Part shown: one piece after another, positions 6,131 to 10,152 of the stretch
How positions within the stretch are numbered: the stretch's first letter is position 1
Layout: the number at the start of each line of letters is the position of its first letter
From: Candidatus Falkowbacteria bacterium CG10_big_fil_rev_8_21_14_0_10_43_11
Lineage (GTDB): Bacteria; Patescibacteriota; Patescibacteriia; Patescibacteriales; XYC2-FULL-47-12
Reading direction: 5' to 3'
Length of the DNA stretch: 26,079 nucleotides
Assembly: GCA_002778635.1 (NCBI GenBank)
Contig: PFAS01000047.1
Span: 3,811-29,889, forward strand
Notes under the pieces: model-generated
Told to the model about the DNA's origin: nothing
Databases searched by the model: none
Seen by the model: the letters and a program-made list of their open reading frames with translations, nothing else
Position numbers and translations under genes: made by a program

Positions 6131-8212
6131 ATGGATTATCCCCTTAATAAAGTCCGCAACATCGGCATTATCGCCCACATCGACGCCGGCAAAACAACCG
6201 TTTCCGAGCGCATTTTATTTTACACCGGCAAAAAGCACAAAATCGGCGAGGTGCACGAAGGCGAAGCGACGATGGACTGGATGGAACAGGAGCAAGAGCG
6301 CGGTATTACCATAACGAGCGCCGCGACCACTTGTTTTTGGAAAGATTGCCGCATCAACTTAATTGATACTCCGGGACATGTGGATTTTACCGCCGAAGTG
6401 GAACGCTCTTTGCGCGTTTTAGACGGCGGCGTAGTCGTATTTGACGGCGTAGCCGGCGTTGAGCCGCAATCCGAAACGGTTTGGCATCAGGCGGAAAAAT
6501 ACAGCGTGCCGCGCATGTGTTTTATCAATAAATTGGATAGAACCGGCGCGGATTTTTATAAAGACGTGGAATCCATTCACAGCCGTTTGACCAAAAGCGC
6601 TTACCCGATCCAGCTGCCTATCGGCACGGAAGAAAATTTTCGCGGCTTAGTTGATTTGCTTACGCGCAAAGCGCGAATTTACGAAGACGAATTGGGCACT
6701 AAATTCAGCGACGAAGAGGTGCCGGCGGACATGAAAGACAAAGTGGAAGAATACCGCGCGAAATTGGTTGAAGCGATCGTGGAAAATGACGAAGAGTTAA
6801 TGGGTAAATATTTGGCCGGTGAAGAAATCGGCGCGGAAGATTTAAAAAAAGAATTGCGCGCGGGAGTAATCACTAACCGTCTGGTGCCGATTATGTGCGG
6901 CAGCGCGCTGAAAAATAAAGGCGTGCAGTTTTTATTGGACGCGGTCTGCGACTATTTGCCGTCGCCGCTTGACGTGCCGCCGCTGGAAGGAATTGACGCC
7001 AAAGACGCGGCCAAAAAAATTGCCGTACATCCGGACCCAAATGAGCCGTTCGCGGGCCTAGCTTTTAAAATCGCGACCGACCCTTTTGTCGGCAAACTTT
7101 GTTTTGTCCGCGTTTATAGCGGCATCTTAAAATCCGGCTCTTATGTTTTAAATACCGCGAACGACGCCAAAGAGCGCATCGCTCGCATTGTTTTGATGCA
7201 CGCCAATCACCGTGAGGATGTGGATGAAGTAAAGGCGGGTGAAATCGCGGCCGTGATTGGTCTAAAGAGCACCGTTACCGGACATACGCTTTGCGATGAG
7301 AGCCGCCCGCTGATTTTAGAAAGCATTACTTTCCCCGAACCGGTAATCAAAGTCGCCGTGGAACCGAAAACCAAAGCGGACCAGGAAAAAATGGGCATTG
7401 CTTTGCAGAAACTTGCGGAAGAAGACCCGACTTTTCGCGTTAATACCGATCAGGAAACCGGCCAGACTTTAATCGCGGGCATGGGCGAGTTGCATTTGGA
7501 TATTATTGTTGATCGTATGAAGCGCGAGTTTAAAGTGGAAGCGAACATCGGCCAGCCGCAAGTCGCTTATCGCGAGACAATCAAAAAAGAAGCGGAAGCC
7601 GAAGGAAAATACATCCGCCAATCCGGCGGCCGCGGTCAATACGGCCATTGCTATTTGCGCGTGAAGCCGCAAGAAACCGGCAAAGGTTTTGAATTTAACG
7701 ATGAAGTAAAAGGCGGCGCTATTCCGCGCGAGTATATTCCGGCCATTCAAAAAGGCGTTAAAGAAGCGCTGGACAAAGGAATTTTGGCCGGTTACCAGTT
7801 GGTTGACATTAGCGTTACCGTCTATGACGGTTCGTATCACGAAGTTGACTCATCCGAAGCGGCGTTTAAAATCGCGGGTTCAATGGCTTTTCAAGACGCT
7901 TGCCGCAAAGCCGATCCGGTATTGTTAGAGCCGGTAATGAATGTGGAAGTAGTAACGCCGGAACAGTTTATGGGAGATGTGGTCGGCGATATTAATTCCA
8001 AGCGAGGTAAAGTGGAAGAAATGAGCGAACGCGGCCAGATGAAAGTGATTGACGCCAAAGTGCCGCTCGCGGAAATGTTCGGTTATGCCACGCAATTGCG
8101 CTCCATGACGCAGGGCCGCGCGAGCTACAGCATGGAATTATTCGGCTACGAAGAAGTGCCGCGCAACAAAGCGCAGGAAATTATTGAAGGCAAAAGCGGA
8201 GGAAAAAAGTAG
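6131..8212 (+). CDS. fusA: Elongation factor G
   Basis: [39 protein letters not shown]; 693 aa. Confidence 0.99.
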
Positions 8213-8245: not shown

Positions 8246-8274
8246 TTGACAAGTGGTAATGACAGTTATATAAT
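8246..8274 (+). promoter_or_regulatory. Perfect-consensus sigma70 promoter
   Basis: TTGACA (8246-8251), 17 nt, TATAAT (8269-8274). Confidence 0.85.
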
Positions 8275-8315
8275 TTTGATTAGTTGCAATTTTAAATAAA
8301 ATAAATTTGTGGGAT

Positions 8316-8870
8316 ATGCAAAATCAACTTGACAGGATTATAAATTTAGTAAAAAAAACCGGCGACCGTCTGGTTGTTTTGGATCGCGATAACCCGCGTC
8401 AAAGTTATGTAGTAATGGATATTAACGATTATGAAATGTTAGTGGATAAGGGAGAATGCCATTGGGATGGCGACGGCGAAAGCGATGATTTTTATAAAGA
8501 GCCTTGGGACGAGAGCGATGAAGAAGATGAAGATTGGGATTTTAAGCCGGAAAATTACTTAAGCGATGATTTAAAAGAGGATAATAATGAATATGATTTT
8601 AATGAGCCGCCGATAGTTGATCTGGACGGCGATGACTATGGGGACGACGGAAAAGAAGATTTTACGCCAATAGATGAAATTTTTGCTGAAAAAAAGGTAA
8701 AAAATAAAAAAACCAGCCAGCTTGACAATAGTTTGAAGTATGGTACAATGAAGCATAATTCCGAAGAAATCAGCGGAAAACGGCGTTCTCGCTGGGAAAT
8801 TGCGCCGGAAGTGAAAAAAACATTTGAAAATGAGCCGGAGGAAGACAGATATTATTTAGAAACCATTTAA
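8316..8870 (+). CDS. Hypothetical protein (184 aa): compact, possibly Phd/YefM-like N-terminus plus a long acidic low-complexity tail
   Basis: ATG 8316 (MQNQLDRIINLVKKTGDRLVVLDRDNPRQSYVVMDINDYEML). D/E-rich middle. C-terminus EEDRYYLETI. Confidence 0.8.
   Translation: MQNQLDRIINLVKKTGDRLVVLDRDNPRQSYVVMDINDYEMLVDKGECHWDGDGESDDFYKEPWDESDEEDEDWDFKPENYLSDDLKEDNNEYDFNEPPIVDLDGDDYGDDGKEDFTPIDEIFAEKKVKNKKTSQLDNSLKYGTMKHNSEEISGKRRSRWEIAPEVKKTFENEPEEDRYYLETI
8722..8749 (+). promoter_or_regulatory. Putative internal promoter directed at tuf
   Basis: TTGACA (8722-8727), 16 nt, TACAAT (8744-8749), with extended -10 TG at 8741-8742 and an A-tract at ~8701-8712. Confidence 0.55.
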
Positions 8871-8964
8871 TTTTTTTGGTTTTTTTTACTTTATTTATAA
8901 TAATTTAGGCGGCTGGATTGTAACCCCGCAGTACTGTGGGGGCCGTAATTAAGGAATAAAAAAC

Positions 8965-10152
8965 ATGACTGCACAATTTGAACGCACAAAACCCCATGTT
9001 AATGTCGGCACCATCGGCCACGTTGACCATGGCAAGACGACTTTAACGGCAGCTATTTTAAAAGTGTTGCATGCTAAAGGTTTTACTGCTTCCGAAAAAT
9101 CAGTTGACCAAATAGACGCTGCTCCGGAAGAAAAAGCGCGCGGCATTACAATCGCCACCGCGCATGTTGAGTATGAATCGGAAAAACGCCATTACGCGCA
9201 CGTAGACTGCCCGGGTCACGCCGATTACGTCAAAAACATGATTACCGGCGCGGCTCAGATGGATGGCGCGATTTTGGTCGTGAGTGCGACTGACGGTCCG
9301 ATGCCGCAAACGCGCGAACATATTTTGCTTGCAAATCAGGTAGGCGTGCCGTATGTCGTGGTATTTTTAAACAAAGTTGACATGGTTGAGGATAAAGAAT
9401 TGATTGATTTGGTAGAAGAAGAAGTTCGTGATTTATTAAAAAAGTACGAATTTGACGGCGATAACGCGACGATTATCCGCGGCAGCGCTTTGAAGGCGTT
9501 AGAAGATCCGAACGGCGAGTACGGCCAGGCGATTTTAGATTTAGTCAAGGCTTTGGACGAAAAGATTCCGGAGCCGAAACGCGATATTGATAAGCCGTTT
9601 TTAATGCCGATTGAAGATGTTTTCTCAATTGAAGGCCGCGGCACCGTAGTCACCGGCCGCATTGAGCGCGGCATAGTAAAAGTCGGCGAAGAACTGGAAA
9701 TAATCGGTTTGCGCGATACCCAAAAGACTACTGCCACCGGCATTGAAATGTTTAACAAAACTTTAAATCAGGGACAAGCGGGAGACAACGCCGGCGTACT
9801 TTTGCGCGGCACTAAAAAAGATGAAGTGGAACGCGGCCAGGTTTTGGCTAAACCAGGATCAGTTACTCCGCATACGGAATTTGAATCCGAGGTATATGTT
9901 TTAACCAAAGAAGAAGGCGGACGCCATAAGCCGTTTTTTAAAGGATATAAGCCGCAATTTTACATCGGCACCACTGATGTTACGGGCGAGGTAAGTTTGT
10001 CGGAAGGAACGGAAATGGTCATGCCGGGCGATACCGTCAAAATGACGATTAAATTAATCGCGCCCATCGCTTTGGAAGAAAAGCAAAAATTCGCCATTCG
10101 CGAAGGCGGCCATACCGTAGGCGCCGGCGTTGTGGCAAAAATGATTAAGTAA
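8965..10152 (+). CDS. tuf: Elongation factor Tu
   Basis: [33 protein letters not shown]. Confidence 0.99.

Follow-up and report, generated by a model that had tools for sequence, protein, structure and literature searches.

A conserved, toxin-less antitoxin-like gene ahead of tuf in Patescibacteria appears to carry a tuf promoter within its codons

Results

The locus

The window analysed here is the whole 26,079-nucleotide stretch introduced above, and positions are those of the window unless a locus or contig is named. An open reading frame that we call orfX splits the fusA-tuf pair. The features of the locus are as follows.

6131-8212, + strand: fusA, encoding EF-G, the usual neighbour 5' of orfX
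8246-8274, + strand: promoter-like site of orfX itself, TTGACA-17-TATAAT, 12/12 consensus positions, ~42 nt upstream of the ATG
8316-8870, + strand: orfX coding sequence, 184 aa and a stop codon, for a toxin-less, conserved, acidic Phd/YefM-like protein
8316-8450, + strand: N-terminal domain of the orfX protein (aa 1-45), predicted helix-strand-strand-helix, likely a Phd/YefM fold minus strand 1
8451-8780, + strand: predicted disordered linker (aa 46-155), acidic and aromatic-rich, pLDDT 47-65
8722-8749, + strand: promoter-like site within orfX that faces tuf, TTGACA-16-TACAAT with TG upstream, 11/12 consensus positions
8781-8867, + strand: conserved C-terminal region (aa 156-184), with R-W-E-I-x-P-E-x-K, an acidic run and the tip D-R-Y-Y-L-E-T-I
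8909-8946, + strand: predicted structured tuf leader: outer stem of 5 bp, inner hairpin of 7 bp and, on the 5' side, a conserved bulge of 10 nt (UGGAUUGUAA)
8965-10152, + strand: tuf, encoding EF-Tu, the downstream neighbour of orfX

The earlier note's description of the gene itself held up: the frame lies between fusA and tuf (8316-8870, +), its promoter-like site matches the consensus at 12/12 positions, the protein contains the quoted N-terminal peptide, the D/E-rich tail and the EEDRYYLETI end, and no toxin gene is adjacent, the next gene being tuf. An in-frame TTG at 8307 makes three extra residues possible; all homologues begin M-x-x-Q-L, and we therefore take the ATG at 8316 as the start. 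The predicted protein has a pI of 4.23, with 54 D and E among its 184 residues and 19 aromatics. The gene has a G+C content of 38%, versus 50% for fusA and 48% for tuf, and heads a cluster of tuf and ribosomal protein genes. Its DNA is present in 23 DNA sequencing runs (groundwater and aquifer metagenomes), and no RNA run is among the runs listed as containing it.

Distribution and conservation

A word-indexed search returned 13 relatives of the orfX protein, and an exhaustive search 146 cluster representatives at E ≤ 0.001. Profile searches of whole genomes placed the gene in 57 of the 61 genomes searched from this order; among these are all 45 of high quality. Of the high-quality genomes of the class, 62 of 143 have it, as do 26 of the 182 genomes in a phylum-wide sample, usually in a single copy. 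It lies directly 5' of tuf and on the same strand in all 19 order loci and all 29 class loci. The phylum search gave a further 29 loci, and in 25 of them orfX is again directly 5' of tuf; of the other four, three are weak, head-only matches in larger proteins. Given the 146 cluster representatives and the fixed position beside tuf, the observation is far beyond chance. The earlier note had staked its reading partly on a conserved place next to tuf, and the place is conserved, in 73 relatives' loci overall. Its description of orfX as an orphan insertion is not supported, and neither is a recent insertion, as the gene occurs in nearly every genome of the order that was searched.

Some genomes of the class lack orfX, so the gene is not universally essential; at one such locus (L085) the gap between fusA and tuf is 146 nt. 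Other class genomes carry a diverged short form, e.g., at locus L089. The ESM Atlas neighbours of the protein are labelled Falkowiibacteria, Uhrbacteria and Magasanikbacteria, consistent with ABY1. No longer, fused forms of the protein were found, NCBIfam holds no family for it, and a literature search found no paper on the family. From its distribution, orfX appears to be an old, vertically inherited housekeeping gene of ABY1-type Patescibacteria.

Other small genes occur at this position. In two genomes from different families of the order, a gene of 118-123 aa with no Pfam family ends 6-11 nt 5' of orfX (L001:1001-1354, +; L009:2037-2405, -), and its product contains the conserved stretch H-E-M-K-x-Y-I-D-S-K-L ... 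D-K-N-W-K-I-K-I. In a class genome with no recognisable orfX, tuf is preceded by a gene for a 114-aa protein (L086:998-1342, +) that has an N-terminal membrane helix and ends ...F-K-L-D-P-I-E, similar to the tip of the orfX family.

An antitoxin-like head

Conservation in the first 45 residues centres on L11, T15, G16, D17, V32, Y39 and E40, which are near-invariant. AlphaFold2, run with 141 sequences, predicts a helix at residues 2-15, strands at 19-22 and 30-33 and a second helix at 36-44, with pLDDT values of 87-93 over aa 1-40 and ~ 90 for aa 1-45; nearly all of the rest falls below 70. The Pfam family PF02604 matches aa 2-43 on profile positions 10-49, and 76 of the 141 family members match it at E < 0.01 (the best at 1.4e-7). 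The protein of this window is not a member of PF02604 in the strict sense: it scores 16.2 bits (E 0.0088; 19.9 bits in a six-frame search of the genome) and does not reach the curated cut-off of 29.8. Structural comparison gave a similar picture. In Foldseek the model found nothing significant (E 0.6-1.6), and the rows with low rmsd (2.0-2.5 Å over 44-48 columns) are YefM and RelJ. In VIA, the 14 best chains are all Phd, YefM or RelJ, but at Z values of only 2.7-3.8; scores as weak as these are expected for 45 residues. The VIA alignment places model residues 1-50 on chain residues 7/8-56, and its start at chain residue 7-8 leaves strand 1 without a counterpart in the orfX head. Searches of PDB sequences with the protein and with two profiles, one of them of the head, returned neither YefM nor Phd, and the rows for a radial spoke protein, a beta clamp and designed proteins were set aside as weak and chance-like.

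We consider it likely that the head has the Phd/YefM fold. The earlier note had pointed to the Phd/YefM antitoxin pattern in this part of the protein, and a match to the fold does exist in the Pfam and structural comparisons; the likeness stands by the 14 best structural matches and the 76 of 141 family members that match PF02604, while the statistics are weak and the protein's own score lies below the cut-off. The nearest known proteins are the Phd/YefM type II antitoxins, such as E. coli YefM (2A6Q), S. aureus YefM (6L8E), phage P1 Phd (3HS2 and 3K33) and M. tuberculosis RelJ (3OEI). Like these antitoxins, the orfX protein starts with a small alpha/beta head, and its C-terminal part is predicted to be disordered and would be expected to fold on a partner. 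It differs in that no toxin gene follows, the head lacks strand 1, and the C-terminal part is acidic, far longer and of unrelated sequence; the gene also has a fixed place in the str operon, usually with one copy per genome.

A similar helix-strand-strand-helix head stands at the N-terminus of a 297-aa glucose-1-phosphate thymidylyltransferase-like protein from another class (L078:757-1650, -). We rejected this sugar nucleotidyltransferase as a fused form of orfX, as it is an unrelated protein; its head suggests that the module may serve more generally for oligomerisation.

A variable linker and a conserved tip

The 110-aa linker holds 38 D and E residues and 13 of F, W or Y. Across the family, proteins range from 96 to 213 aa and from 14 to 37% D+E, and the linker varies in both length and sequence; with such a range, bulk acidity is not a conserved feature of the family. 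Head and tip stay in frame with each other although linker lengths differ widely. In ~ 44 of 49 loci the extreme C-terminus follows the pattern ...[DE][DE][DE]-x-[FYQ]-Y-[LF]-E-[PET]-[IVL], then E or x-F. It reads ...Y-Y-L-E-T-I in this window's orfX family; elsewhere in the order it is ...Y-L-E-E-[IV]-P-F, and the other orders of the class have ...F-Y-L-E-P-[IV]-E. In other classes the protein ends in acidic and aromatic residues, with I-P-F last in some. The D/E-rich tail and the terminal motif that the earlier note singled out are real, and the motif is conserved. The tip differs between lineages, so a single common partner for it is an assumption.

A predicted tuf promoter written into orfX

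The site upstream of orfX is the only perfect match to TTGACA-17-TATAAT in the window, where matches with at most one mismatch number two, against 0.12 expected from shuffles. A site matching at least 10 of 12 positions lies within 200 nt upstream of orfX in 21 of 49 related loci.

The site at 8722-8749 lies within the coding sequence, where it is encoded as L-D-N ... Y-G-T-M, and has two hexamers close to consensus with a spacing of 16, within the range of 16-18 for a sigma-70-type promoter. Its predicted transcription start falls at ~ 8756, ~ 208 nt before the tuf ATG. Such sites are concentrated in orfX. Over 49 loci, and with at least 5 of 6 matches required in the first hexamer, sites of at least 10/12 occur at 1.74 per kb in orfX, 20 to 35 times the rates per kb of fusA (0.09) and tuf (0.05). 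They are found inside orfX in 34 of the 49 loci, in the spacer between orfX and tuf in 8, and in either place in 38.

The peptide that coincides with the site in most of the class is L-T-E-x-E-L-L-D-K-I, with the codons TTG ACA ... GAT AAA ATA. Codon use was compared at 27 loci that were picked by peptide pattern alone, which avoids circularity. Leu is encoded by TTG at 24 of these loci, Thr by ACA at 25, Asp by GAT in 21 of 21 cases and Ile by ATA in 21 of 26, whereas in tuf of the same genomes these codons make up 33% (TTG), 16% (ACA), 56% (GAT) and 6% (ATA); as the codon and site counts come from related genomes, small probabilities calculated from them are overstated. Third-position identity is 78-93% in the hexamers versus 41-63% in the spacer and most flanking positions, and the Leu, Glu and Asp codons of the spacer vary freely among the 27 loci. 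The hexamers are conserved beyond the protein's need.

Five loci keep both hexamers with a changed peptide between them, e.g., L-T-N-F-R-A-P-D-K-I. Three keep the peptide in other codons and have lost both hexamers together, and one of these has a strong promoter in the spacer. In this window's orfX family, the site stands in another frame and position (x-TT GAC AAy ... TAT GGT AMA ATr), at 8 of 8 loci. Genomes of other classes and genomes without orfX have a 10-12/12 promoter 56-220 nt upstream of tuf. We conclude that tuf probably has a promoter of its own throughout the phylum, placed here within orfX, and, at the level of sequence, that the embedded sigma-70-type promoter is kept by selection on synonymous sites. 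The first reading of orfX had missed both this putative promoter and the structured leader of tuf.

A perfect TATAAT at 8896-8901 (+) lies 7 nt before the leader stem, and similar A/T-rich words occur in relatives. We rejected it as a third promoter before the leader hairpin, given inconsistent spacing in relatives and no matching first hexamer.

There is a possible precedent. Zengel and Lindahl are said to have described, in Biochim Biophys Acta in 1990, secondary tufA promoters inside the fusA coding region of E. coli. As with the site in orfX, a tuf promoter would lie inside the upstream gene there, and tuf could be expressed beyond the level of the operon. The case described here differs in its host gene, orfX, and in hexamers that overlay a conserved peptide with synonymous codons fixed across the class; the promoter of orfX is a prediction from sequence.

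A covarying hairpin in the tuf leader

The predicted leader hairpin has a continuous 3' strand and ends 18 nt before the tuf ATG, just 5' of AAGGA. Its folding energy is -18.1 kcal/mol (z -1.6), and the tuf leaders of relatives fold alike, some with an extra hairpin in the bulge. A covariance model, R1, built from 12 loci with a hand-set structure, has 19 matches in 273 kb, all just 5' of tuf; one of them is in a genome without orfX (L085) and one in this window. As R1 matches a single place in the window, the hairpin is distinct from a dispersed element found before the window's other ribosomal protein genes. Its pairs hold in 91.8% of cells, compared to 79% in shuffles and 48-59% when the structure is slid, and double changes number 29 versus 9.8 in shuffles; these covariation counts lean towards the structure, the alignment having been fitted to the model. 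The outer stem is 98.9% paired, with compensatory changes at four of its five pairs. MAFFT with RNAalifold misaligned the leader and returned only 4 pairs. A search of Rfam 15 gave no match to the tuf leader; one row, at a chance-level E of 0.87, lay elsewhere.

The comparative data point to a covarying, bulged hairpin ahead of tuf. It resembles the autoregulatory leader RNAs of operons for ribosomal proteins and translation factors in that a conserved, covarying structure stands just 5' of the ribosome-binding site of a translation gene with high expression. In contrast to these, the tuf leader has no Rfam family, and the ribosome-binding site is unpaired in its predicted fold.

Toxin genes at the locus and in the genomes

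No toxin gene adjoined orfX in any locus fetched, and this genome has no match to ParE or YoeB. Fic-domain genes are found in 45 of the 61 genomes of the order, in 0 to 8 copies, and mostly encode 300-400 aa rather than Doc-sized proteins. Of the order's 45 high-quality genomes, all of which have orfX, 13 showed no gene of Fic or Doc type.

This genome has two Fic genes (C13:1876-2199, -, and L082:1318-1641, -). One frame, of 380 aa, is on the same contig, ~ 10 kb upstream of orfX and outside the window. The second is a contig-end fragment with the motif Q-P-F-E-D-G-N-K-R, in which Gln replaces the catalytic His and the Lys is typical of Doc.

Toxin-antitoxin genes lie between fusA and orfX in three relatives (L017:987-1488, +; L038:1900-2459, -; L007:2345-2590, -). 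They comprise ParE-type toxins, one after a MazE-like gene and one after an 81-aa gene without a match in Pfam, as well as a HicB-like antitoxin; the ParE-type toxins, 5' of orfX, come in complete cassettes with an antitoxin of their own. The fusA-orfX junction seems to collect toxin-antitoxin cassettes, which would provide a plausible origin for orfX.

Discussion

So, is orfX an antitoxin gene? Our best reading is that it encodes an antitoxin fold that was taken out of toxin-antitoxin biology, i.e., a domesticated descendant of a Phd/YefM-type antitoxin. Phd neutralises Doc, and Doc phosphorylates EF-Tu (PMC4803016). A working antitoxin for a toxin encoded elsewhere, such as a Fic/Doc-type enzyme that targets EF-Tu, would have this precedent, the Phd/YefM-like fold and the frequency of Fic genes in the order (45 of 61 genomes, and two here) on its side. 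However, no adjacent toxin was found in the loci fetched, and the 13 of 45 high-quality orfX-carrying genomes without Fic/Doc show that any such link is not obligatory. The Fic genes are moreover mostly of the wrong size for Doc and vary from none to eight per genome, and orfX is usually single-copy at a fixed place, unlike mobile toxin-antitoxin genes. We judge a current antitoxin role to be very unlikely, and the Phd-Doc-EF-Tu connection implied by the earlier note is not supported.

The layout of the protein suggests another kind of function. By analogy, an oligomerising head, a floppy linker and a conserved end peptide would together make a tethered docking motif. The tail of SSB has the same design: from the oligomerisation domain, a flexible linker of low complexity leads to a short, conserved peptide, acidic and hydrophobic, at the very C-terminus. 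The SSB tip is an acidic run that ends in I-P-F (the SSB of this genome ends ...E-N-I-P-F), and many orfX relatives in the order end ...E-E-[IV]-P-F. The fold is different, and the likeness is one of design only; the protein of this window ends ...EEDRYYLETI and so lacks the [IL]-P-F end of SSB, and most members in the class end ...E-P-[IV]-E. Ribosomal stalk proteins (L7/L12 in bacteria, P1/P2 in archaea and eukaryotes) dimerise through their N-terminal domain and recruit translation GTPases with a C-terminal element, and a flexible acidic hinge lies between the two. The orfX protein can be likened to them in layout, and its gene adjoins the genes of both GTPases, EF-G and EF-Tu, but there is no relation in sequence or fold.

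The reading that we favour, with slightly more than even confidence, is that orfX encodes a domesticated antitoxin fold that acts as a dimeric scaffold with two tethered docking peptides, and that the gene doubles as a promoter platform for tuf. The head would dimerise as Phd/YefM heads do, and from the dimer two long, flexible arms would extend, with a short docking peptide at the end of each. The peptides may bind a conserved partner, which would most plausibly belong to the machinery of translation or transcription. A co-fold of EF-Tu with the orfX protein, both given as alignments, scored 0.00, which speaks neither for nor against binding. A more specific proposal, which we consider unlikely, is that orfX is a Patescibacteria-specific translation factor, a dimer whose tethered C-terminal peptides bind EF-Tu or recruit elongation GTPases in the manner of the stalk; gene, embedded promoter and leader RNA would then form a single unit controlling the supply of EF-Tu in genomes as reduced as these. 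As a replacement for EF-Ts, orfX was rejected, EF-Ts being present in the genome.

Three other explanations must be weighed against the scaffold reading. The N-terminal domain of Phd/YefM is a dimerisation and operator-binding domain (PMC4803016), orfX lies between two strong promoter-like sites, and a conserved basic K-K/R-R pair precedes the invariant T-G-D of its head, so the protein could be a DNA-binding regulator, its head dimer repressing or tuning its own promoter and that of tuf and the ribosomal cluster. A highly conserved DNA-reading head should have a conserved site, but upstream of orfX in 49 loci we found no conserved palindrome, and no common word beyond A/T runs and TATAAT. The head also lacks strand 1. 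In YefM, R10 and R31 are needed for operator binding via the head dimer (PMC4803016); by hand alignment only, the DNA-binding arginines fall on Q2 and the invariant D23 of orfX. We regard such regulation as improbable. Alternatively, orfX might act chiefly as an acidic buffer or mimic: a disordered polyanion that would imitate nucleic acid or chaperone basic ribosomal proteins, with the conserved ends serving only oligomerisation and turnover. A pI of 4.2, the acidic and aromatic residues of the linker (38 and 13 in 110 aa) and the position of the gene at the head of the tuf and ribosomal protein cluster would all suit this role. Yet the acidity of the linker is not conserved (14-37% D+E in proteins of 96-213 aa), and the strongly conserved tip points to a specific site rather than to bulk charge, which makes bulk-charge action decidedly unlikely. 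Finally, the protein could be incidental and lack any function of its own, with the frame kept for its translation or for the DNA, promoter and leader, that serves expression of tuf. A promoter written into the frame and a hypervariable linker agree with this. The head and tip, however, are conserved across the class and beyond, far above what a spacer frame would need, and AlphaFold2 folds the head with high confidence; of all the explanations considered, we give an incidental protein the least credence.

Regardless of the function of the protein, several results are firm: the conservation of orfX, its fixed place before tuf, the lack of a toxin, the predicted in-codon promoter and the covarying leader. 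The cut-down head is likely of antitoxin type. For the mechanism, we infer a dimeric scaffold that carries two docking peptides.

The Patescibacteria, mostly uncultured and with tiny genomes, account for a large part of bacterial diversity. The occurrence of orfX in nearly every genome of the order, within an operon that is among the most conserved in bacteria, points to a likely basic role that has gone unseen in model organisms. The gene would be a clear case of an antitoxin fold outside toxin-antitoxin biology. The putative promoter in fixed synonymous codons would be a natural example of DNA that carries two messages at once and, if the promoter is true, silent mutations should alter the expression of EF-Tu. 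The partner of the tip would tell whether these bacteria run translation or transcription with an extra component.
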